The notes beneath the pieces were generated by a model. It ran no database searches. It was not told where the DNA came from and was given only the letters and a program-made list of their open reading frames with translations. Positions 1 to 63,537 of a stretch of 64,000 nt of DNA are shown here, piece after piece (position 1 is the stretch's first letter; the number at the start of each line of letters is the position of its first letter). The DNA comes from Candidatus Levyibacteriota bacterium. Its GTDB lineage: Bacteria > Patescibacteriota > Microgenomatia > Levybacterales > UBA12049. Made by a program: the position numbers and the translations under genes. The DNA is taken from contig CAVRKE010000002.1 of assembly GCA_963722305.1 (NCBI GenBank), positions 123,878 to 187,877 on the forward strand, in the 5' to 3' direction.

Positions 1-1171
1 TTGAAATATTTGAGTCTCTAATTGAAGTCCAAGCTCTGGAAAAACCCAGCTCGATGGCTGTTTGATGGGATTTTCCTTGCCTTAATTCTTCTTTCATTCT
101 TTCGAAGATTAAAATGTTGGCGTCAACTGCCATGCCGATGGAAAGAATAAATCCGGCAATTCCGGAAAGGGTCAGCGTTATTCCGTAGGGCGTAATCGAA
201 CTTAATTTGAAAATGCTTAAAACAAACAAAGTGTACAAAGTTAAAGCCAAACTGGCAATTAATCCCAATTTCTTGTAGAGAGACGTCATAAAAACAACGA
301 TTATAACAAAACCGAGTATGCCTGCAAAAAGGCTTTTTGCAAGCGAGGAACTGCCTAAAGTTGGCTCAATAACACTACTCGATAATATGCTTAAAGGGAC
401 CGGTAAGGCACCGGCATTTAGTTCCGTACTTAATTGAGTGGCTTGATCCAGAGTAAAATTTCCTTCAATCACAGCATTACCACCAACTATTGCTTGATTT
501 ACTCTGGGTGTACTGATAATTTGGTTGTCTAAAGCAATTGCCAAGATTTTTCCAACTAGCCTTTGTGTAATATCGGCAAATTTCTTAGAACCCGCAGAAT
601 TAAAAACAAGTTGCACTTCCGGCTTGCCGGTATTTTGACTAAAAGCAACACTTGTTTGCTGTAAATCCGAACCGGTTAAATTCGTTTTTCGATAATCTGC
701 CGGGTTAAATGTTGCCGAATTAGTACCAACTTGTTCCCAAAAAGTTAACTGGGCAGTTGTCCCGATTAAGTTTCTGATTTGGTTGACATCCGTGACCCCG
801 GGAATCTCAACGATGATTCTGTAATCGTTATTGTTTGTCACTGATGTTTGGACCAGCGGTTCGGAAACACCGAATAAATTTACCCTGTTTTCAATTACGG
901 TTTGTGCGGAACTTAACGCAGCTGTTCTTTGAGCTTGAGCAATACTGGACATATTTGCCTTAAGTATTAAACTCGTTCCGCCCTTTAAATCCAATCCTTC
1001 TCTAAAAGTTAACGTTTGATTTATTTTTAAAGCGGCAAAAATAGAATTCGGATCAAAATTATAAGTTTTGTCGGCAAAATGAATATTGGAAATCTTTGGC
1101 AAGTTAATAAAAACCGCCACAACAGTTAAACCAATAATTAACCACAAAAGATACCGTGGACTTTTTCTCAT
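1..1171 (-). CDS. secD: Protein translocase subunit SecD (3' end runs off the window edge)
   Basis: Translation of the minus strand from the ATG at 1171 gives MRKSPRYLLWLIIG...VSEPLVQ...AGILGF...AVDANILIFERMKEE. These are SecD hallmarks. Not in the ORF track because it is partial. Confidence 0.85.
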   Translation of the reverse strand, partial: MRKSPRYLLWLIIGLTVVAVFINLPKISNIHFADKTYNFDPNSIFAALKINQTLTFREGLDLKGGTSLILKANMSSIAQAQRTAALSSAQTVIENRVNLFGVSEPLVQTSVTNNNDYRIIVEIPGVTDVNQIRNLIGTTAQLTFWEQVGTNSATFNPADYRKTNLTGSDLQQTSVAFSQNTGKPEVQLVFNSAGSKKFADITQRLVGKILAIALDNQIISTPRVNQAIVGGNAVIEGNFTLDQATQLSTELNAGALPVPLSILSSSVIEPTLGSSSLAKSLFAGILGFVIIVVFMTSLYKKLGLIASLALTLYTLFVLSIFKLSSITPYGITLTLSGIAGFILSIGMAVDANILIFERMKEELRQGKSHQTAIELGFSRAWTSIRDSNIS

Positions 1172-1189
1172 AGATTCGATTTACTCACT

Positions 1190-1218
1190 ATGACACTGAG
1201 AAAAGTCGAACGTGTCAT
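1190..1218 (-). promoter_or_regulatory. Conserved intercistronic hairpin E1 (stem ATGACAC/GTGTCAT, loop TGAGAAAAGTCGAAC) between the regulator stop codon and the secD ATG
   Basis: Perfect 7-bp inverted repeat. The TGA stop of the upstream ORF lies inside the stem. The whole 1172-1218 spacer is about 85% identical to the ftsE-ftsX spacer. Confidence 0.6.
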
Positions 1219-8809: not shown

Positions 8810-9763
8810 CTAAATTATCTGCCTCCAATAGTCTAGTGTATCATTAAGGGTTTGCTCGATGGGAATTTCAGGCTTCCAACCCAGTTTATTTAATTTACTC
8901 GCGTCACAAACAAGCTCAGGGTCGTCAATGGGTCTAAAGAGAGATTTATCGATTTCAATCTTGATTTTTGCATTTGAAAAAGATAATAATTTATCCAAAA
9001 TGTCCGAAATCTTATGCGAAACGCCAGAACCAACGTTGTAAACTTCACCGAATTCTCCTTTATCCATCAACAGCGAATAAGCTCTGACAACATCTCTAAC
9101 ATCCGTAAAATCACGCTTCGCTTCCAAATTACCCACCGGTAAAACCGGCTCCCTTTTCCCCTTTTCCACCTCAACTATCTTTTGCGCAAAGGATGAAACG
9201 ACAAAGTTGGGTGCTTGTTTTGGACCAACATGGTTAAACGGTCTGACTCTAACTGTTTTTAAACCATAGGATAAAAAATACTGTCTGCCCAAGAAATCTT
9301 GGGCAAGCTTTGAAACCGCGTAGGGGTTAGTCGGATTTAAAGGTGTCTCTTCATCCATCGGCAAATCATCTTTCCTGACACTGCCATAAACTTCAGCCGA
9401 AGCAACTACTAAGGTTTTCGTATTCAATAAATTACTTTTCCGCATCGCCTCAAAAACATTTATCTGACAGGCAATATTATTTAAAACTGTTTCCCGCGGT
9501 GATTTAAAACTGTCTGCCGCTGAGGTAAATGCCGCCAAATGGTAAATAATGTCGGGCTTGACGTGGTCAATCAAATTATAAACTTCTTCTTCGCTACGAA
9601 GATCAACCGTAAGCCACTTCGCTTTTTTATTGTCCGAATTTTGCGAGGTACCTTTAGAAAATATAGTTCCAAATAATTCATTGGTTGAATCTAGGCTCAG
9701 ATAATCTACTAAATAGTTCCCCACAAAGCCGGAGGCGCCCGTAATCAGTATTTTTTTGGCCAT
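8810..9763 (-). CDS. NAD-dependent epimerase/reductase, probably GDP-4-keto-6-deoxy-D-mannose reductase (Rmd-like) or GDP-fucose synthase
   Basis: ITGASGFVG Rossmann motif and YxxxK. Adjacent to gmd. Confidence 0.5.
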   Translation of the reverse strand: MAKKILITGASGFVGNYLVDYLSLDSTNELFGTIFSKGTSQNSDNKKAKWLTVDLRSEEEVYNLIDHVKPDIIYHLAAFTSAADSFKSPRETVLNNIACQINVFEAMRKSNLLNTKTLVVASAEVYGSVRKDDLPMDEETPLNPTNPYAVSKLAQDFLGRQYFLSYGLKTVRVRPFNHVGPKQAPNFVVSSFAQKIVEVEKGKREPVLPVGNLEAKRDFTDVRDVVRAYSLLMDKGEFGEVYNVGSGVSHKISDILDKLLSFSNAKIKIEIDKSLFRPIDDPELVCDASKLNKLGWKPEIPIEQTLNDTLDYWRQII

Positions 9764-11062: not shown

Positions 11063-11991
11063 ATGTGTATCCTATCCATTTGATTTCTAATTTCAATCAA
11101 TCCCTTATCAAAACTGGACATTTCAATTCCTAATTTACTTATTTTATCATTTTTAAGATAAAGACAAAAGGGTCTTGGTGCTTTCGCGGCAAAATATTCC
11201 CGGCGTGTAGTTTTAAAGACACATGTTTGATCTAAATCAAACACTTCGGCAATTCTTAAAGCCGCATCATACGGGTTTATTTTTTGGCTGCCAACCACGT
11301 GGAAAATCCCTCTCTGGTTTGTCCTGATTAAAATGTCTAAAGCATTAATAATGTCATCAATAAATGTCGGAACCATAATATGGTCTGTCACCATATTTAG
11401 TTTTTCACGCTTCTGAAGTTTCCCAATTAATCCTCTGACAAAATCGCTCCTTTCAAATAGTGCCCGGTAAGGGTAAGCAATTCGGGCGATAATATAATCT
11501 AAACCTGAGTTTTCCACTATTTTTTCTCCTTCGTATTTTGTTCTTGCATACCAATTGATTGGATCCGGCTGGCTATTTTCTAAGTAGGAACTTTTTTTGC
11601 CGTCGAAAACAAAATCCGTGGATATATAAACTATTGTTTTATTTGTCTTTTGACAGGCTTCAATCACATTCTGTGTTCCAAAAACATTTACCCCCCAGGC
11701 TGTTTTTTCTTCTTTCCAAGCATCCTCTGCCTCCTCAGAATTTTTAAACTCTAATATTTCCTTATCCCTTTCCTTATCGCTTTCGCAGCCGTCAACATTA
11801 GCCTTAGCAGCCATGTGAATTACTATGCTTGACTGCGAACCGGAGATTTTATTGAAGACTGCCTGCTTATCAAGAATGTCTATGCCATTATCTAAACTGA
11901 TGTGCTCAAATTCATAAACCTCATTCAACAGTTCCGTAAACCGTGAACCGACCAAGCCGGTCAAACCTGTTCCAAGAATTTTTGTTTTCAT
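11059..11991 (-). CDS. rfbD: dTDP-4-dehydrorhamnose reductase
   Basis: RmlD-like (ISTDFVFDG, ARTKYEGE). Confidence 0.75.
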   Translation of the reverse strand: MKTKILGTGLTGLVGSRFTELLNEVYEFEHISLDNGIDILDKQAVFNKISGSQSSIVIHMAAKANVDGCESDKERDKEILEFKNSEEAEDAWKEEKTAWGVNVFGTQNVIEACQKTNKTIVYISTDFVFDGKKSSYLENSQPDPINWYARTKYEGEKIVENSGLDYIIARIAYPYRALFERSDFVRGLIGKLQKREKLNMVTDHIMVPTFIDDIINALDILIRTNQRGIFHVVGSQKINPYDAALRIAEVFDLDQTCVFKTTRREYFAAKAPRPFCLYLKNDKISKLGIEMSSFDKGLIEIRNQMDRIHI

Positions 11992-18924: not shown

Positions 18925-19791
18925 CTATTTAAGATATCTTAGAACCGCTAAAAAGCTTGAGACAATACCCAAAAATACCGCAAATAAAACTTCCAGGCCA
19001 AGCAATAACAGAAGCGAAAAGTAAGAAACCGGCAAAACCGGAATTCCTTTTAAGAATGACTCCAAAAACGGCGAGGCATACAATAGTCCGGCAGTGGCAA
19101 TTAGCCAACCGATGACCGAACCAACAACCCCATAAAAGACTCCCTCATATATAAACGGCCAGCGGATATACCAATTTGTTGCTCCAATCAGTTTCATGAT
19201 TTCGATATCTTCTTTTTTCTGGGAAATTTTTACTCCGATTATTGTTACCATAATAAAGATGGAAACCAAAGACAAAAGGACAATTAAAACTATGCCAATT
19301 TTTCTTATCGCACCTGTCCATGCGCTTAGGGTGGAAACAACGTCTTTTTGGTAAACAACATCCGACACTAGCGGTGACTTTGTGAGCATATTGGAGATAT
19401 TTCCTAAATCTTCTATCTTAATCGTGGAGATTTCAAATGACGAAGGTAAAACGTCGGCGGTAACCAAATCCAAAAGCAGCGGGTCATTCTTATTTTGTTC
19501 TCTGTAAATTTTGAGGGCATCCTCTTTTGAAACAAATTTAATTGAGGCAACCTTACCGGTTGCTTTTAACTGATTTCCTAAAGCATCAATGTCCGCCTGT
19601 TTTGCCTCGTTTTTGAAAAAGGCTGTCACCTGAGGTTTTGACTCAAAATAATTGATTATTGTTGACGATCCGGCCAAAAGGAAGACAAAAAAGGATACTG
19701 CCAAAAAAGTTAAAGTCATGATTAGAATTGCCGCCAACGCCTGATACGGCGACCTTCGAATATTTTTCCAGGCAGTTTTAGTAATGTTCAT
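18925..19791 (-). CDS. ftsX: Cell division protein FtsX
   Basis: Four-TM permease-like topology with a large periplasmic loop. Confidence 0.85.
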   Translation of the reverse strand: MNITKTAWKNIRRSPYQALAAILIMTLTFLAVSFFVFLLAGSSTIINYFESKPQVTAFFKNEAKQADIDALGNQLKATGKVASIKFVSKEDALKIYREQNKNDPLLLDLVTADVLPSSFEISTIKIEDLGNISNMLTKSPLVSDVVYQKDVVSTLSAWTGAIRKIGIVLIVLLSLVSIFIMVTIIGVKISQKKEDIEIMKLIGATNWYIRWPFIYEGVFYGVVGSVIGWLIATAGLLYASPFLESFLKGIPVLPVSYFSLLLLLGLEVLFAVFLGIVSSFLAVLRYLK

Positions 19792-19808
19792 AGATTCGAT
19801 TCCTCACT

Positions 19809-19837
19809 ATGACCTTGAGCAATGTCGAACAGGTCAT
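19809..19837 (-). promoter_or_regulatory. Conserved intercistronic hairpin E2 (stem ATGACCT/AGGTCAT, loop TGAGCAATGTCGAAC) between ftsE and ftsX
   Basis: Same loop as E1, with two compensatory base-pair changes in the stem. The ftsE TGA lies in the stem. The spacer 19792-19837 is near-identical to 1172-1218. Confidence 0.6.
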
Positions 19838-20550
19838 TTCTTTTCCCCTCCCCTGTCCTCCGAAGCCGCCAATTTGGCGTGCGAAGGAGGATTTTCATCT
19901 TTGATAATCTTCCCCTTTTCAATATGAACTACTCTTTTCCCCAAGCTTTTCACAATATCTGTATTGTGGGTAGCCATCACCACGGTTGTTCCCTTTTTGT
20001 TGATATCCGACAGAAGTTTTACTATTTCCCATGAAGTTGCCGCATCTAAGTTACCCGTTGGCTCATCTGCCAAAAGTATTTCGGGGGACAAAACCAAAGC
20101 TCTGGCTATGGCCGCTCTTTGCAGCTCTCCCCCCGAAAGCTGCACGGGAAATTTATCTTTGTGTTCCGAAAGCCCAACTTGAGCTAAAATTTCTTCGACT
20201 GTCTTCGTGGCCTGGTCCAGTTTCACTCCGGCCACTTCTAAAGGCAACACAACATTCTCAAAAACAGTTCTGTCTAAAAGAAGCTTTAAATCCTGGAAGA
20301 CAAAGCCGACCTTTTTCCTTAAGCTGGAAATTTTATTTTTAGGAAGCTTAACCACATCCCAATCATTAACAATTACGTTTCCTTCCGTCGGCAAAATATC
20401 CCTTATCAAAAGCCTAAAAATTGTGGTTTTTCCGGCACCCGTCGAACCAACTAAAAAAACAAACTCTCCTTTTCCAATATCGAGAGAAACTTCAGAGAGG
20501 CCAAATGTACCTGTCCCGAATTTCTTGGAAACTTTATCAAGTTTTATCAT
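19834..20550 (-). CDS. ftsE: Cell division ATP-binding protein FtsE
   Basis: ABC ATPase with Walker A GSTGAGKTT, LSGGELQR and Walker B. Confidence 0.9.
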   Translation of the reverse strand: MIKLDKVSKKFGTGTFGLSEVSLDIGKGEFVFLVGSTGAGKTTIFRLLIRDILPTEGNVIVNDWDVVKLPKNKISSLRKKVGFVFQDLKLLLDRTVFENVVLPLEVAGVKLDQATKTVEEILAQVGLSEHKDKFPVQLSGGELQRAAIARALVLSPEILLADEPTGNLDAATSWEIVKLLSDINKKGTTVVMATHNTDIVKSLGKRVVHIEKGKIIKDENPPSHAKLAASEDRGGEKK

Positions 20551-35683: not shown

Positions 35684-35722
35684 CTATTTCTTCTTTTTCT
35701 TTGCCTTCTTTTTCTTTGCCAT
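35684..35722 (-). CDS. 12-codon Lys-rich mini-ORF (MAKKKKAKKKKK) with a consensus SD; a leader-peptide candidate
   Basis: AAGGAGGTGA 7 nt upstream of the ATG. A TTGACA lies about 90 nt upstream. The ORF is followed by the terminator and then secA. Confidence 0.35.
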   Translation of the reverse strand: MAKKKKAKKKKK

Positions 35723-35883
35723 GGACAGATCACCTCCTTATAAATTCGCTCAAATTTAAAACAATAAAGATGAACGGCAATTACTTTTATCTTGTATTAT
35801 TTTGTTTGTCTTGTCAAGATTTTTTCTTTGCTTCAAAACCGAAAGTTTAGATTGATTTAACAACAAAAATCAAAGAGGCTATT

Positions 35884-39329: not shown

Positions 39330-39581
39330 TTAACTTTGAACTCTTTCTCCCAGTTCGTTTATCCAGGGCACGAGTCGACGTGCTCTATCCGAAGTTCCTG
39401 GGTTAACTTCGTCCGCTTGAACAACTCTCGGTCTAACTATAATTTGTTCTGTTACTGAAGTTCTAAAAGAAATACCTGCTAGGTCTACTTTTCGCGATGA
39501 AGAAAAGCTATGTCTTCCACCATCCGGTTGACTTCCTTCCTGAGCTACTTCTTCTGGTGTCCTACCTGCTAATCTATCCAT
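39330..39581 (-). CDS. Hypothetical 83-aa protein (no recognised family)
   Basis: AGGAGGTGA SD 6 nt upstream of the ATG, preceded by hairpin E3. Confidence 0.45.
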   Translation of the reverse strand: MDRLAGRTPEEVAQEGSQPDGGRHSFSSSRKVDLAGISFRTSVTEQIIVRPRVVQADEVNPGTSDRARRLVPWINELGERVQS

Positions 39582-39600
39582 AATATTTCACCTCCTGACT

Positions 39601-39628
39601 TTAGTGGTGAGCATTGTCGAACCACTAA
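39601..39628 (-). promoter_or_regulatory. Hairpin E3 (stem TTAGTGG/CCACTAA, loop TGAGCATTGTCGAA)
   Basis: The loop matches the E1/E2 loops with a different perfect stem. On the sense strand it is followed by AGGAGGTGA and the ATG of the 83-aa ORF. Confidence 0.55.
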
Positions 39629-39760
39629 AAAACCCTTCCGTTTAGGGATATCTTTTCCGGTAATTGTTAATTACAAAAAGATTCCCTCAGAAGGGCTGCT
39701 TTTTTGCTAACTTTTCTAAATTTAATTTTTCAAAACTTGACATAATTATAAACACATTTA

Positions 39761-53877: not shown

Positions 53878-53956
53878 ACTTACCGTTAACCTTTTCAATT
53901 CTATTCGAATACGGTTTACGGAGCGTTTTAGCGGCGGGCGGGGAAGGAGGTGAAAA

Positions 53957-54379
53957 ATGAAGAAACAATCTCGTTTAATCTTTGGAGTTGTGGTATTGGT
54001 CGTAATTATTGTTGCCGGTTATTTAATTATCAGTACCGGTATCGGACAACAACACAAAACAGCGCAAACTCTCATTAATCAACAGCAAATTATAAATTCC
54101 CATGAGCAAAGGGCAACCGTTACTCTTACCGGTTCAGGCTTCAATCCTGCAACGTTAACCGTAAAACCGGGAACAAGAATTATTTGGTTAAATAAAAGCG
54201 GAACCAATGGAAGTGTAAACTCCGACAATCATCCGACAAATCTTTTATATCCTTTCTTAAACTTAGGACAATTTAATAATGGTTCAAGCGTCAGCGTGGT
54301 ATTTAAAAAAGCCGGAAAATATACTTACCATAATGAAGTAAATCCGGAGCAAAAAGGCACGGTTGTGGTTGAAGAGTAG
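53957..54379 (+). CDS. Cupredoxin-like secreted protein without the canonical copper ligands
   Basis: GGAGGTGA SD. Beta-sandwich pattern TLTVKPGTRIIWLN...YHNEVNPEQKGTVVV. Confidence 0.45.
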   Translation: MKKQSRLIFGVVVLVVIIVAGYLIISTGIGQQHKTAQTLINQQQIINSHEQRATVTLTGSGFNPATLTVKPGTRIIWLNKSGTNGSVNSDNHPTNLLYPFLNLGQFNNGSSVSVVFKKAGKYTYHNEVNPEQKGTVVVEE

Positions 54380-57408: not shown

Positions 57409-57488
57409 CAAGATACCTAAAGATTAGCCTCAAAATGACCTCAGAATTGGAAATTCAGCCTAATTTTTGCTAAAATACCAATGACCTT

Positions 57489-57829
57489 CGGAAGGAGAGT
57501 CACTACCCCGCCTTGGCGGGGAGGAAAGTCCAGACAGGATTAAAGCCGGGGACGGAACATAAGTTCCGACTAGTGATAGCTAGTGTCCCGATTTTTTACC
57601 CACATGTGAAATCGGGAACAGATTCTGAATTGACAGAATCTGAGAATAACAGAGACGAGTGGGAGTGAAACGGATAATCCTACCTGCTGTAACCTTTGAC
57701 AGATGCGTTACCACTCTGCTTTAGAGGAGCATCGAAAAAAGGGCATCCTGGTTAGAACAGGACGAAACGACCAATTATCGTATCGAGATAGATTGTGATT
57801 AGAACAGAATCTGGCTTACCACCTTCCGT
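57489..57829 (+). ncRNA. rnpB: RNase P RNA (bacterial type A-like)
   Basis: P4 halves GAGGAAAGTCCAGAC and ACAGAATCTGGCTTAC. P1 pairing GGAAGG/CCTTCC. Located in a 480-nt ORF-free gap. Confidence 0.8.
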
Positions 57830-57864
57830 CGGTCACAAATTTCGAAAATCGCAAATATTGAGGC

Positions 57865-58937: not shown

Positions 58938-59210
58938 TTACCTTACTACTTTCTTCAAGGTTTTCCCCGGTGTAAATCCCGGTGCTTTGCGGGCCGCAAT
59001 GGTAATTTTTTCTCCGGTCTTTGGATTTCTTCCCGGCCTGGCGGCTCTTTTTCTAATGGAGAATGTGCCAAATCCGGTAATCACTACCTTCTCGCCTCTT
59101 TTTAAGGAGTCTCTGATGCCGTTTAAGAATGCCCCAACGGCATCTCTGGCTGCCTTATTGGTCATATTCCCTTTTTTGGCAACTAACTCTATTAAATCTT
59201 TTTTTGTCAA
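58938..59210 (-). CDS. hup: DNA-binding protein HU
   Basis: HU fold (GFGTFSIRKRAARPGRNPKTGE). TTG start with a GAGGTGA SD. Confidence 0.9.
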   Translation of the reverse strand: MTKKDLIELVAKKGNMTNKAARDAVGAFLNGIRDSLKRGEKVVITGFGTFSIRKRAARPGRNPKTGEKITIAARKAPGFTPGKTLKKVVR

Positions 59211-59417
59211 CTCAATTCACCTCGCTTTCCTAACAAATAGTCGAACTAATAACTAGTGGCTAATTGCTAATGGCTGATTATTAATTAGCTTAACAATACA
59301 ATGTAAATGAGAAGTTGTCAAGGGGCGAACAATTACTATTTCGCCCTGCGATCCTGAGCGAAATGAAGTCCTCCAAGGACTGAGTGGAGTCGAACGGGTC
59401 AAGCACCTTTTAATTAT

Positions 59418-60665
59418 TTACGAGGAAAATTCGGTGGCGGTGGCGCGGAATTCCCGAATGGCGGTCACTTTTATTTCTCCGGCTACTGCCTGAGATTTAC
59501 TGACTTCATCCCTGATTTTATTGGCGACCACTGTCGTTTGCGCATCGTCCAATTGTCCCGGATTGATGATGACCCGCAATTCTCTCCCGGCTTCAAACGC
59601 ATAAGCGTCCTCAACGCCTTCATATTTTTTGGCAATTTCTTCCATTTGCGCCAAGCGCTTACCGTAGTTTTCCACATCTTCATATCGAGCACCCGGTCTG
59701 GCTCCGGAAATCTGGTCGGCAATATGCACAATCACCGACTCAACCGAGGAAAACGGCTTATCTTCATGGTGTTCGGCCACACAATTAACAATTAAGTCCG
59801 GGATATTATTTTTCTTTAAGAAATCTACTCCCAAAGTGACATGGCTGCCCTCGCCTTCCAGCACTTTTCCGATATCGTGGAATAAACACCCCAGGCGGAC
59901 AATATTGACGTTGGCCCCGATTTCTTCGGCAATGTGGATTCCGATTTTGACGTCTTCCAAAGTATGAATGATTAAATTCTGACCGTAAGAAGTCCTGAAT
60001 TTAAATCTGCCTAAGACTTGCAGAATTTCGCGGGACAAATTAAACACTCCGGCTTCATGTGCCATTCTTTCGCCTTCTTCAAACATTATCCTATCGACTT
60101 CTTTTTTTGTTTCCTCAACAATTTCCTCTATGCGGAATGGCTGAATCCTGGTATCCCTGATTAATTTTTCCAAAGACCTTCTGGCCACTTCCCGTCTGAC
60201 CTGGTCAAAACTGGATAGCCTGATAACACCCTCTTCATCCAAATCAACGTCTACTCCGGTGGCCTGTTCAAAAGCCCGGATGTTTCTGCCTTCTTTGCCG
60301 ATGATGCGGCCTTTAATTTCTTCGTCGGGGATTTTCACTACCGAAACCGTGTATTCGGCAATAAACTTGAGGGCGCCAAAGCGCATAGCGTCCACCAGAA
60401 TTTCCTGGGCCTTTTTATCGGCGGTGGACTTGGCTTCGTCTTCCCTGTCCCGGATAATTTTAGCGGCTGTCTTAGCTTCACTTAATTCCAGTTGTTCTAA
60501 GAGCTCTTTTTTGGCTGCCTCGGCACTTAAACCGGAGGTTTTTTCCAGTTTTTCCTGATATTTATCTTTAAGCTCGGTAAGCTTCGCTCTTTCCTGTTCA
60601 AGTTTTTCTTCCCTTTCCAGAAGTTTTTTTTCTAATTGAATTAAATCCTGATTATCTTGTGCCAT
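59418..60665 (-). CDS. rny: Ribonuclease Y (lacks the N-terminal TM anchor)
   Basis: KH and HD domains. 415 aa. Begins with a coiled coil. Confidence 0.85.
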   Translation of the reverse strand: MAQDNQDLIQLEKKLLEREEKLEQERAKLTELKDKYQEKLEKTSGLSAEAAKKELLEQLELSEAKTAAKIIRDREDEAKSTADKKAQEILVDAMRFGALKFIAEYTVSVVKIPDEEIKGRIIGKEGRNIRAFEQATGVDVDLDEEGVIRLSSFDQVRREVARRSLEKLIRDTRIQPFRIEEIVEETKKEVDRIMFEEGERMAHEAGVFNLSREILQVLGRFKFRTSYGQNLIIHTLEDVKIGIHIAEEIGANVNIVRLGCLFHDIGKVLEGEGSHVTLGVDFLKKNNIPDLIVNCVAEHHEDKPFSSVESVIVHIADQISGARPGARYEDVENYGKRLAQMEEIAKKYEGVEDAYAFEAGRELRVIINPGQLDDAQTTVVANKIRDEVSKSQAVAGEIKVTAIREFRATATEFSS

Positions 60666-60773: not shown

Positions 60774-61274
60774 CTATTTAGCCAAAACCTGGTCAATGGC
60801 TTCTTTTACCGTATCCCAATCAAATCCCTTTGAAGCGAGGTATCGGCCGAGTTTTTCGTAGACTTTTCGTTTATCGTCTTTGTCATGAATCGTTCTGAGT
60901 TTTTTTTCTGCCAACTTACGCGCGCTTTCCGTGTCAAGGTTTTTGGTCATTGATAATTGGTCATTGGTCATTACGAAATCGATGATTTCGTCCGTAATTC
61001 CCTTCTGTTTTAGTTCGTATTTAATCACTCTCCACGCTTTTGGTTTTAATAAAGTCCGCTGCTTCACCCACATCCGCACAAATTCCTCATCGTTAATGAA
61101 CTTATCCCTTTTGAGACTCGCGATTATTCGTTCTATTATTTCATTCTTAATTCTTAATTCTGAATTCTGAATTCTGAATTTTTTAGTGAGGTAGTCCCGC
61201 ATCTCTTTTTCACTGCGCGGACGGAATGACAAAAAACGGATAGAGGCTTTGTAGAATTTTTCAAAATCGTCCAT
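60774..61274 (-). CDS. recX: Regulatory protein RecX
   Basis: Three-helix-repeat architecture, immediately downstream of recA. Confidence 0.7.
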   Translation of the reverse strand: MDDFEKFYKASIRFLSFRPRSEKEMRDYLTKKFRIQNSELRIKNEIIERIIASLKRDKFINDEEFVRMWVKQRTLLKPKAWRVIKYELKQKGITDEIIDFVMTNDQLSMTKNLDTESARKLAEKKLRTIHDKDDKRKVYEKLGRYLASKGFDWDTVKEAIDQVLAK

Positions 61275-61283
61275 CTTGCGATA

Positions 61284-62372
61284 TTACTCTTTGCTTTCCG
61301 CTTCGACGCCGACTTCAACCCTGGCCGGAGAGGTTTTGCTTTTGGTCATTATTTCTTCAACGATTTTTTTGGCAGTATCCGGTTTTTCTTTCAAAAAGAG
61401 CGCGGCCGCCTGTTTACCCTGGCCAAGCATAAGTTCGCCAAACCTAAAGAAGGCTCCGGATTTTTCAATAATGCCCATATCCACCCCGACATCCATGATT
61501 CCGCCCTCCCGCGAAATGCCGGTATCGGCCATCACGTCAAACTCGGCAATCCGAAAAGGCGCCGACACTTTATTTTTAACAATCTTGGCTCTGTGCCTAC
61601 TACCAACCACCACGTCTCCTTCTTTTAAGGTCTCTATTTTGCGAACGTCAATTCTTATCGATGAATAAAATTTCAGCGCCAAGCCGCCGGTGGTGGTTTC
61701 GGGGTTACCAAACATCACACCGATTTTTTGCCGCAGTTGATTGGTAAAAATCACCACGGTTTTTGATTTGGAAATAACCGCCGTTAATTTTCGGAGAGCC
61801 TGCGACATTAGCCTCGCCTGCAGCCCCATCATCGCATCTCCCATTTCGCCTTCGATTTCCGCCCTTGGCACCAAAGCGGCCACCGAATCGATAACCAGCA
61901 CATCAATTCCGCCGCTTCTGATTAAACTCTCAGCAATTTCTAAAGCCTGTTCGCCGGTATCCGGCTGGGAAATTAATAATTCATCTAACTTAACACCAAG
62001 ACGCTGCGCCCATAACGGGTCAAGCGCATGTTCGGCATCAATAAAGGCGGCTACGCCATTATGCTTTTGCGCTTGCGCAATAATTGATAAACAAACTGTC
62101 GTTTTTCCCGACGCCTCCGGTCCGTAAATTTCAATGATTCTCCCTCTTGGCACTCCACCTACTCCGAGTGCTAAATCTAAGGGAAGACAGCCTGTGGAGA
62201 TAACCGAGACGTCAAATTTCTGGCCGGTGTCGCCAAAGCGCATAATACTTCCGCGTCCGTACTGTTTTTCGATTTGTTCCATTGCCAGTTTGACTGCTTC
62301 CATTTTCTGTGAACCTTCCGAAGGACCGTTTGAAGTTTTTTCTGTCTTTTCCGAATTACTATGTCTTGCCAT
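61284..62372 (-). CDS. recA: Recombinase RecA
   Basis: Walker [10 protein letters not shown] and L1/L2 loops. The TTGATA-N17-TATTAT promoter ends 6 nt from the ATG. Confidence 0.97.
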
Positions 62373-62510
62373 AAAAGTATAATAAAAAAATTCTCGAACA
62401 ATATCAAGATATCAAAACAGGTCAAAGTAGGTTGAGCGTAGCGAAATCCTGAGTGGAAGCGAAATACTGAAGCTCCGAAGTACTGAGCAAAGCGAAGAAT
62501 CAATTTAAGC

Positions 62511-63500
62511 TCAAACAGATTTAACTCTATAGAAACTTCCTTTTGTTTCTCCACTTCTTTCAATAAGTCCTTTATCAAGTAACTTTTTAAGATCATACCT
62601 CAGTGTTCTTTCTGGTACTTTTAGAAAATGCCTTCGAATCATATCAAAAGATACAACCCTTTGGTCTTTAATGATGTTTAGTATTTCTTCTTGCCTAGGC
62701 GGCAAAAATATTAAATCTTTTTTACTGGACTCATTTTTAATATCCTCACGGATTTTCTCAATCTCGGAAAGAAAAGCGTTCAGCATAAAATACAAATATT
62801 CATCTGTATTTTTGAAACCCTGGTCTAGATAAAAATAATATTCCGACCGGTTATTATCCAAATACTCTTCAAAGGGAATCGCAAGAGTAAAATCCCAACC
62901 TTTTACTTTTAAAATTAAAGAGATCAGTAACCTTCCAACCCTGCCGTTTCCGTCCAAAAACGGGTGGATTTTTTCGAAACACAAATGCGCTACAAAGGCT
63001 TTAACCAGCGGAAATTTTTCCCCGCCTTCGTTGATATATGCCAACAGCTCTTTGATAAGTTTTGCTATTTGAAAAGGTGACGGCGGCATATATACAGCCA
63101 CTCCGGCTTCATTAAAAATTGCGCTCTGTTCTTTCCTGAAGAATCCCGCATCAGGACTAAGATTTTTTAAGACAAGTTCGTGAAGCTTTAAAAGCATCTC
63201 TTTTGTGACAATGTTTGTCCCTTCGGTATTTTTTTCGATGAATCTTGAAGCCTCGATGATATTAAAAATTTCCTGTTTACTTATATCTTTTGATTTTTCA
63301 AATGAAACTTCCGATAACTCAAGCGGATTTCCTTCGATGCGCGCAGAGTAAAGCGAACTCTTTAAAAGGCTTTTCCGCTGAATATTTTCTTTAATTTGGG
63401 AAGAAATTTCTAAAGAGGCAAAGTTAATTCTGTAGGACTCGATTTTTGCAATGAGCTCGATCATTTCCGGCGTAATTGAATAAGTTGGAGGAATCTTCAT
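62511..63500 (-). CDS. Fic/DOC family protein (DUF4172 N-terminus, Fic domain, C-terminal wHTH)
   Basis: Fic motif HPFLDGNGRVGR. The start is probably the ATG at 63500 rather than the track's GTG at 63518. Confidence 0.85.
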   Translation of the reverse strand: MKIPPTYSITPEMIELIAKIESYRINFASLEISSQIKENIQRKSLLKSSLYSARIEGNPLELSEVSFEKSKDISKQEIFNIIEASRFIEKNTEGTNIVTKEMLLKLHELVLKNLSPDAGFFRKEQSAIFNEAGVAVYMPPSPFQIAKLIKELLAYINEGGEKFPLVKAFVAHLCFEKIHPFLDGNGRVGRLLISLILKVKGWDFTLAIPFEEYLDNNRSEYYFYLDQGFKNTDEYLYFMLNAFLSEIEKIREDIKNESSKKDLIFLPPRQEEILNIIKDQRVVSFDMIRRHFLKVPERTLRYDLKKLLDKGLIERSGETKGSFYRVKSV

Positions 63501-63537
63501 GTTGCCTAATCTTACCACATGTTGCCTAATCTTGCCA
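63498..63537. repeat. Tandem 20-bp direct repeat (catgttgcctaatcttRcca x2) at the Fic start and promoter
   Basis: Two near-identical copies. The first contains the Fic ATG. Confidence 0.8.

Follow-up and report, generated by a model that had tools for sequence, protein, structure and literature searches.

The window analysed here is a stretch of 64,000 nucleotides of contig CAVRKE010000002.1 (assembly GCA_963722305.1, positions 123,878 to 187,877 of the forward strand) from a Candidatus Levyibacteriota bacterium, and only 3,385 of its bases (~5%) are intergenic. It contains a cluster of genes that are all read from the minus strand, namely a Fic/HTH gene (62511-63518, hereafter fic), recA (61284-62372), recX (60774-61274), rny (59418-60665) and hup (58938-59210), and the order recA-recX-rny-hup is conserved across the related loci that were matched through RNase Y. 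The two spacers in question, fic-recA and rny-hup, carry short words resembling an element that is found intact at two other junctions of the window, those in front of secD (start at 1171) and between ftsE (19834-20550) and ftsX (18925-19791). The original prediction regarded these words as degenerate relatives of the element, lying upstream of hup and recA, and offered as one alternative an operator for a LexA-like or other regulator.

The reading favoured here, and considered probable, is that the hup and recA sites are stemless remnants of a dispersed hairpin repeat, inert and without a regulatory role, and that the intact cassettes of the same family probably tune translation. By their loop words, both sites belong to the repeat family; every other defining part of the cassette (the partner arm, hairpin B and the start codon) is missing from them; and they are lineage-specific or decaying, with poor conservation in close relatives. 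For the comparison, reference genomes were scanned with RNase Y as the query, which yielded 80 loci with 67-88% identity, the named ones being mostly Candidatus Levybacteria (Levyibacteriota)/Patescibacteria metagenome-assembled genomes; this places the window in a genome of the CPR (Patescibacteria). Together with the window, these loci (the numbers preceded by L in what follows designate the compared sequences) make up a sample of 1.38 Mb, in which genes were delimited by crude open reading frame (ORF) calls. Two models were used for the search of copies: a covariance model, R1, trained solely on hairpins from outside the window that had been chosen for having stems, and an nhmmer profile of the whole composite, built from 55 composites from outside the window and comprising 52 model positions. 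Exact-protein look-ups returned no contig on record with an identical HU (with an L or an M start) or RecA.

In its intact form the element is about 50 nt long and reads, in the mRNA sense at secD and ftsX, ATGAnnn-[TTCGRC-N4-CTCA]-nnnTCAT-AG-[TGAG-N4/5-CGAA]-(T)CTATGA, with the loops in brackets. It is a composite of two hairpins: hairpin A has 7-bp arms, the first of which includes the TGA of the upstream gene, and hairpin B has the arms TCATAG and CTATGA, the last of which carries the ATG of secD or ftsX. Both hairpins are mutually exclusive, because TCAT belongs to both of them, and there is partial complementarity between their loops (TTCGA to TCGAA, CTCA to TGAG). At the secD junction, the upstream gene stops at the TGA of hairpin A, ATGACAC[GTTCGACTTTTCTCA]GTGTCAT, and secD starts at the ATG of hairpin B, TCATAG[TGAGTAAATCGAA]tCTATGA; the ftsX junction reads ATGAcct-GTTCGACATTGCTCA-aggTCAT-AG-TGAGGAATCGAA-t-CTATGA. 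Five hairpins of the window are recovered by R1, which are the two at each of these junctions and a single, well-formed one that stands 26 nt ahead of an 83-aa ORF, itself upstream of the class I lysS gene.

The hup site contains only the first 40% of this element. Its loop is an exact match to TTCGRC-N4-CTCA in the mRNA sense, and the nhmmer profile aligns to it at 9.5 bits (E 0.069) over model positions 3-24 of 52, that is, over the 5' arm and loop A; the 3' arm GGGTCAT and the entire hairpin B are lacking. The expected 3' arm GGGTCATAG is replaced by GTCCTTGGAGG, the 3' side reads GTCCTTG, pairing is limited to GAC/GTC (3 bp) and R1 gives no hairpin there at E<=10, in agreement with the missing stem already noted in the original prediction. 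The copy starts 17 nt and ends 38 nt past the rny stop, some 170 nt before the hup start and upstream of the hup promoter, and neither this copy nor the recA array sits at the exact junction of a stop codon and the following start codon. A second fragment nearby aligns to the profile over model positions 10-28 (4.0 bits, E 3.6), and its 14-mer ATTTCGCTCAGGAT recurs in L046.

Both hup fragments lie within a lineage-specific insertion that is flanked by two copies of CTTGAC (59403-59398 and 59322-59317) and in which folding predicts two internal hairpins, AGTCCT-TGG-AGGACT (59367-59381) and GGGCGAA..TTCGCCC (59323-59346). When 66 rny-hup spacers were compared, L001, L005, L007, L012 and L013 had a single CTTGAC and no insert, and no other copies of the insert were found in the 1.38 Mb. 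The hup promoter is a different matter, since its CTTGACAA..CATTGTATTGTTAAnCTAA is kept in nearly all the 66 spacers; the promoters at hup and recA are both consensus predictions. The GGGTCAAG singled out previously is the reverse complement of CTTGACCC, i.e., an element arm fused to a duplicated -35-like hexamer. No terminator-like site (a GC-rich stem with a U run) is present in 59211-59417 or in 62373-62510, and minimum-free-energy folding of five regions was no better than that of shuffled sequences (z from -1.0 to +0.4), so that structure receives no support from thermodynamics taken by itself. As a separate observation, the hup 5' untranslated region (59246-59285) contains 2.9 copies of a period-14 repeat, CTAATTACTAATGG, and AGCnnTTAGC-like words are seen as well in the leaders of hup in L002, L011 and L012.

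At recA, the mRNA strand of the fic-recA spacer reads ...TTCGCTTTGCTCAgtacTTCGGAGCTTCAgtatTTCGCTTCCACTCAggatTTCGCTACGCTCAacctac..TTTGACC..CTTGATATTGTTCGAGAATTTTTTTATTATacttttATG and includes a tandem array of four units, TTCGCTTTGCTCA (62496-62484), the degenerate TTCGGAGCTTCA, TTCGCTTCCACTCA (62463-62450) and TTCGCTACGCTCA (62445-62433). Their loop words are variants of TTCGC-N-CTCA, which is present three times, and the complementary flanks are absent; neither R1 (at E<=10) nor the nhmmer profile matches the array, TRF does not call it, and nothing comparable to hairpin B is present. The last two units align with L002 7445-7480, also upstream of recA, L001 retains solely the remnant AAATCCTGAGTGGAA, and most other relatives have a tRNA-Pro gene where the array sits. 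The features of the window are collected in the following table.

Table. Copies and remnants of the hairpin repeat and the adjoining predicted promoters in the window
Feature	Coordinates	Strand	Details
Intact composite, unknown gene/secD junction	1168-1218	-	R1 21.0 and 21.5 bits; nhmmer 52 bits, E 4e-15
Intact composite, ftsE/ftsX junction	19788-19837	-	R1 23.5 and 13.6 bits; nhmmer 46 bits, E 3e-13
Single well-formed hairpin, TTTAGTGG[TTCGACAATGCTCA]CCACTAAA	39600-39629	-	R1 25.2 bits, E 3e-4
hup promoter, TTGACA-17-TATTGT	59293-59321	-	Predicted; conserved spacer signal
Lineage-specific insertion, ~81 nt	59323-59403	-	Between the rny stop (59418-59420) and the hup promoter
Second hup fragment, TTCATTTCGCTCAGGATC	59350-59367	-	Middle-deleted loop word (TTCG-CTCA), then GGATC arm
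Truncated copy of composite hairpin A (hup)	59380-59401	-	5' arm TGACCC (59401-59396) and loop GTTCGACTCCACTCA (59395-59381)
recA promoter, TTGATA-17-TATTAT	62379-62407	-	Predicted; ends 6 nt before the ATG
Tandem array of four stemless loop-word units	62433-62496	-	fic-recA spacer

The words themselves are real and go beyond chance. The hup sequence CTGAGTGGAGTCGAACGGGTCA lies at 59380-59401 on the plus strand and agrees without mismatches with the previously proposed consensus TGAG-N4-GTCGAAC-NN-GTCA, which has four matches in the window (1197, 19816, 39608 with two mismatches, and 59381) against 0.04 expected. The shorter TTCGAC-N4-CTCA has exactly four copies, on the minus strand every time, and the looser TTCG-N4-6-CTCA has 11 matches, 9 of them intergenic against ~0.3 expected (P ~5e-11), three of these nine being the tandem ones upstream of recA. 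The explanation by low-complexity composition, which had been named as a condition that would undo the claim, is excluded by this enrichment of the word in intergenic DNA. Further sequence details of the original prediction hold as well: the 9-mer CTGAGTGGA is common to the hup site and 62449-62457 (2 matches against 0.21 expected), ATCCTGAG and GCGAAAT are found at both sites, and TCGAACAATATCAAG is located at 62394-62408. The description as degenerate relatives of the element also fits, in that hup aligns to the 5' arm and loop A of the profile and recA has three well-formed loop words and a degenerate one, in tandem and on the same strand. That they stand upstream of hup and recA is correct by position; however, both sites precede the predicted promoters and belong to the 3' regions of rny and fic.

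Other parts of the prediction did not survive. A common core TCGAAC-N3/4-TCA(A/T)G had been proposed in front of secD, ftsX, hup and recA, and the ftsX copy, TCGAACAGGTCATT, does not conform to it. The GTCA of secD, ftsX and hup is a hairpin arm (the reverse complement of the TGAC in ATGAC/TTGAC), and the TCAAG at recA corresponds, on the opposite strand, to the predicted -35 CTTGATA; TCGAACAATATCAAG likewise reads on the other strand as CTTGATATTGTTCGA, composed of the predicted recA -35 (TTGATA) and part of the spacer. The supposed core is a mixture of a hairpin arm and promoter-type CTTGA words, i.e., the recA -35 and the duplicated -35-like hexamer at hup.

Beyond the window, the family is defined by a loop word of 13-15 nt, TTCG-N5/6-CTCA on one strand and TGAG-N5/6-CGAA on the other, flanked by arms that vary and yet stay complementary. 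Throughout the 1.38 Mb, the density of TTCG-N1-8-CTCAG in intergenic DNA is 17 times that in coding DNA, and loop words with at least 5 bp of flanking stem were found 34 times against 7 in a reversed-sequence control, nearly all of them intergenic. Stemless intergenic loop words are also in excess, with 32 observed against ~12 expected from the coding-region rate, next to 30 copies whose stem has 5 bp or more. In the related loci the copies are found 2-5 nt before start codons, after tRNA-Pro, inside the RNase P RNA and between convergent genes. The family is patchy, since R1 finds matches in only ~20 of the 80 related loci. Where secD and ftsX junctions are orthologous in diverged lineages, the loop positions are conserved.

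A scan of metagenomes for hairpin B (TCATAGTGAG-N4/5-CGAA-N0/1-CTATG), in which matches were counted regardless of the host taxon, retrieved at least 120 exact-match stretches. Among the matches listed, to which the following counts refer, a canonical hairpin A stands upstream in 55 of 116 distinct hairpin B matches and a flipped A loop in one, that is, a loop orientation in composites of 55:1. Perfectly complementary 7-nt arms are present in 50 of the 57 composites from genomes and metagenomes, in six types: ATGACCC/GGGTCAT (32), ATGACAC/GTGTCAT (9), ATGATCC/GGATCAT (5), ATGATAC/GTATCAT (2) and two singletons. This covariation is unbiased, since the variable arm positions had been left free in the search pattern. 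In 29 of the 57 composites the TGA of the arm terminates an upstream ORF of at least 50 aa, and in 50 the ATG of CTATGA opens an ORF of at least 60 aa. To judge by their N-termini, the genes downstream are mutually unrelated, the putative ones being ftsX, secD, those for the ribosomal proteins L5, L23, L24, L25, L35, L36, S2 and S17, and also adk, PIN toxins, yidC, dnaN, hisS, uvrC, radA and others. The remaining metagenome matches correspond to a plainer hairpin, GTCATAG[TGAGCYTGTCGAA]CTATGAC, within a longer multi-copy repeat on other contigs, and this hairpin weakly matches Rfam RF02901 (AaHKsRNA41) on both strands.

Several observations on the family deserve a separate mention. The longer metagenome repeat spans at least ~100 nt, with a GAGGCTCTTGCAAAAGTCTGAAAAAA..CTTTTCTG hairpin, GTCATAG[TGAGCCTGTCGAA]CTATGAC and then GTCACCC[TTCGACAAGCTCA]GGGTGAC; it is found in other organisms (L082, L099, L108, L118, L137, L138, L146, L151, L167, L168, L177, L188 and L199) and yields spurious ORFs such as MTINQMVISPFDKLRVTIQDF. 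An orthologous hairpin abuts the tRNA-Pro gene at its 3' end in seven species (L016 7503-7520, L018 4547-4564, L028 7161-7178, L040 6866, L052 8045, L057 7578 and L078 496) and reads on the tRNA strand GAC(Y)(Y)-UUCGRCAAGCUCA-(R)(R)GUC, its 5' arm taking in the 3' terminal bases of the tRNA itself; its loop is almost invariant and its stems covary (CC/GG, TC/GA, TT/AA). At the orthologous junctions L016 4192-4243 and L067 6702-6755, upstream of a gene whose N-terminus looks like that of rplQ/L17, the same ATGACC/GGTCAT stem encloses loops of opposite orientation, and in L106 loop A is flipped in an otherwise canonical composite, a small hairpin-loop inversion. Finally, in L020, L026, L052 and L059 a TGAG..CGAA hairpin module is inserted just before the 3' ACAGAAUCUGGCUUA strand of the RNase P RNA. 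The window has a candidate RNase P RNA of the bacterial type A at 57487-57834 (plus strand; 47 bits, E 2e-11, below the Rfam gathering score of 100), which is without that module.

How could these pieces fit together? The genome carries a dispersed family of small hairpin repeats, and the hup and recA sites would be decay products of insertion or duplication, with hup and recA driven by their own promoters downstream of the remnants. The hup remnant may have entered through microhomology between the TGAC of the arm and the TTGAC of the promoter. As for the intact copies, hairpin A holds the stop codon and hairpin B holds the Shine-Dalgarno-like GAGG and the AUG, so that the alternative hairpins, by occluding or exposing GAGG and AUG, would probably tune the dependence of downstream translation on upstream termination. 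The conserved loops at the orthologous secD and ftsX junctions and the 55:1 loop orientation argue that these intact copies are under selection. Some points weigh against this picture of inert remnants. The promoters are predicted, and transcription running on from rny or fic could include the remnants in the hup or recA transcripts; the three recA loop words are intact (TTCG-N5/6-CTCA), and stemless copies could act if the loop word alone is read; and the survival of the last two recA units in L002, whose RNase Y is 87% identical, amounts to some conservation. In addition, the genes of the related loci were delimited crudely, the training set of R1 was picked for stems, and the mechanism of the intact cassettes is a proposed one.

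An alternative that seems unlikely, although it deserves to be weighed, is that the loop word itself is functional, as a protein site or as a complementary RNA loop, and that the stemless copies in the 3' regions of rny and fic are active, for instance by stabilising 3' ends, by offering processing sites or by serving hup and recA as upstream promoter elements. The three intact loop words in tandem upstream of recA and the two units in common with L002 would agree with it, but the array is absent in most relatives, which have a tRNA gene there instead. The conservation of the loop positions while the stems vary, the identical word CTGAGCTTGCCGAAG in Levybacteria tRNA-Pro trailers and in the Aggregatibacter RF02901 consensus, and the strongly non-random loop orientation of the composites (55 to 1 among the matches listed) also speak for a role of the word; the hup insert, however, is absent in the closest relatives, more than 60 species have a hup promoter that works without it, no terminator-like feature is seen at the two sites and the folding energies do not surpass those of shuffled sequences. 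In a related proposal, which we hold to be quite improbable, TGAG-N5/6-CGAA and its complement would be read by a conserved factor or by RNA loops, the cassette would be a portable device that governs translational coupling at dozens of gene junctions, and the stemless hup and recA copies would be weak but real sites. The word does occur at Levybacteria mRNA junctions, in tRNA-Pro trailers, in RNase P RNA inserts and in the Aggregatibacter small RNA model, and also in other taxa, as judged by spurious ORFs. That the sharing of words is due to chance or low-complexity composition can hardly be entertained at all: the shared 9-mer alone is only modestly unlikely (two matches were reached in 1 of 100 shuffles) and TRF makes no call at the recA array, but the 17-base consensus, the nine intergenic loop words and the independent recovery of the family in the 80 related loci and in at least 120 metagenome stretches stand against it, and the enrichment statistics already refute it.

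The idea that the GAAC-containing words are half-sites of an operator, bound by LexA or another repressor that would co-regulate recA and hup (and secD and ftsX), is very improbable. The LexA (SOS) boxes of Firmicutes and Actinobacteria are dyads such as CGAAC-N4-GTTCG, and direct-repeat LexA motifs have been reported for other phyla (PMC7739468). The likeness to such a box lies in the GAAC/GTTC word that overlaps the recA promoter: TCGAAC sits within its predicted spacer, and it is kept at that position as GTTCGA or GTTCTA in ~5 close relatives, including L001, L005, L006 and L044. However, a second half-site is absent at any LexA-like spacing, and on reading 62373-62430 and 59380-59410 no CGAAC-N4-GTTCG, GTTC-N7-GTTC or similar partner was found, be it a dyad or a direct repeat. 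Neither is there phylum-wide conservation. Around 40 of the 63 recovered recA promoters have a different conserved spacer, TwTAACAwAAAnnTGT-TACAAT (the two promoter types are TAACA..TGTTACAAT and CTTGATATTGTTCGAGAA). Moreover, the spacer GTTCGA/GTTCTA never occurs with a CTCA partner and is therefore unrelated to the hairpin family, in which the words of hup, secD and ftsX are the interiors of hairpin-repeat loops and always go with CTCA. At hup the word precedes the promoter and is lineage-specific, with no counterpart in the closest relatives; the copies of secD and ftsX occupy junctions between cistrons instead of promoters. LexA homologues are encoded in Levybacteria, directly downstream of recA in L055 (5036-5653) and L076 (4178-4792), with 30-36% identity to LexA of E. 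coli and B. subtilis (tblastn), but a tblastn search found no lexA in the 64-kb window, where recX follows recA. Thus, the words flagged at hup and recA are not a LexA-type operator, although an SOS/LexA box may exist in the phylum.

Regarding the recA promoters, two further observations can be added. In most of the Levybacteria loci (upstream regions of L001-L080, and 62373-62407 in the window) the -10 ends 6-12 nt before the ATG, so near to it that a leaderless or nearly leaderless recA mRNA is implied. The conserved spacer TwTAACAwAAAnnTGT followed by TACAAT is an extended -10 with a possible operator half.

The hup and recA words should thus not be taken for an SOS box or for a site shared by a regulator; the real signals there are the adjoining conserved promoters. 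What was found at these two genes is ordinary, and the unusual part is the parent family, which is more interesting than its two remnants, with a loop that is conserved while the arms covary and with stop and start codons in the arms. Hairpin B has at least 120 exact metagenome matches, and about half of the distinct ones among the matches listed are full cassettes before real genes. If the cassette does control translational coupling, it would be a compact and reusable regulatory part in tiny genomes with very little intergenic DNA.

Other conserved leaders and small ORFs were noticed along the way. Ahead of a cupredoxin-like gene (53957-54379) stands a leader of ~75 nt, at 53878-53956 on the plus strand, which includes a long-range stem, reads CCCGCCTAAnCTTnCCGTT...TTCGAATACGGyTyACGGAGCG...AGCGGCGGG and recurs in L030 (~9300-9400), L042 (~11240-11340), L165 (~850-960) and L180 (~2680-2790). 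In L030 and L042 it precedes hup, and in L165 an ORF starting with MKLIVGLGNP, which by this N-terminus is putatively pth. No Rfam match was obtained for it, and it may be another repeat or a cis-regulatory RNA. The 83-aa ORF upstream of class I lysS (39330-39581, minus strand) has a perfect AGGAGGTGA Shine-Dalgarno and no Pfam match, and it is preceded by a terminator-like hairpin with a T-run (CCCTAAACGGAAGGGTTTTTT, within 39582-39760) that directly abuts the repeat hairpin. Upstream of serS (35684-35883, minus strand), a tiny lysine-rich ORF, MAKKKKAKKKKK, follows a strong Shine-Dalgarno, and this spacer also has a TGAGCGAA word.

Among the known systems to which the family can be compared, loop E is the one evoked by the label given to the element in the original prediction. 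The bulged-G signature of loop E (sarcin-ricin) is AGUA opposite GAA. Here UGAG is opposite CGAA, which could give U-A, tandem G.A/A.G and G-C pairs, and AGUA is absent on reading the sequence, so that the label is not supported. The sole relative in Rfam, RF02901 (AaHKsRNA41), is the Aggregatibacter small RNA 41, defined by RNA-seq, and no function is given for it in the main text of its description (PMC5909427). Its consensus has GCUGAgCUUGcCGAAGC paired with GUUCGgCAAGcUCAgC, i.e., the same loop word and its complement, but there the two words pair in one long hairpin and not in local stem-loops. Its matches are restricted to the metagenome relatives of the different subtype, at 20-30 bits against a gathering score of 97, and the window copies give nothing in Rfam at the gathering threshold or at E<=10, RF02901 included. 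A tRNA-like T-loop/D-arm, a K-loop bound by L7Ae, a programmed ribosome bypass between the two ATGA, a group II intron domain V, an integron attC and a terminator were also set aside, as their defining signatures are lacking. Literature searches with the loop word (as DNA or RNA) or its typical spurious peptides returned unrelated papers only, and none was found linking the candidate phyla radiation (CPR) with REP, REPIN or MITE; no description of the cassette family was found in Rfam or in the searchable literature.

In function, the nearest counterparts would be structures between cistrons by which the translation of adjacent genes is coupled or uncoupled, for example overlaps of stop and start in ATGA and hairpins that occlude the start codon. 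The intact cassettes resemble them in placing the stop and the start codons in alternative hairpins, with the AUG sequestered in hairpin B; unlike them, this is a portable cassette repeated at dozens of unrelated junctions, and the hup and recA copies are without these parts. In kind, the closest known elements are the extragenic palindromes of the REP/BIME/REPIN type, that is, repetitive extragenic palindromes and their inverted doublets (PMC3116915, PMC2817692, PMC3733652). Like them, the family consists of short imperfect palindromes that are multi-copy, almost exclusively extragenic, frequently in tandem or in alternating orientation, and patchy among related genomes, with decayed copies left behind, and, as in a REPIN, the composite is made of two inverted copies of one word. 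The GTAG/CGTC tetranucleotide tag of REPs (PMC3733652), however, is absent beside the window copies and the aligned copies, and a Pfam scan of 20 window proteins revealed no RAYT gene linked to the family and no transposase. The main difference concerns the architecture: REPs have a conserved stem sequence, whereas here the loop is conserved and the arms vary and covary, include stop and start codons and, in many copies, lie exactly at the junction of two cistrons.

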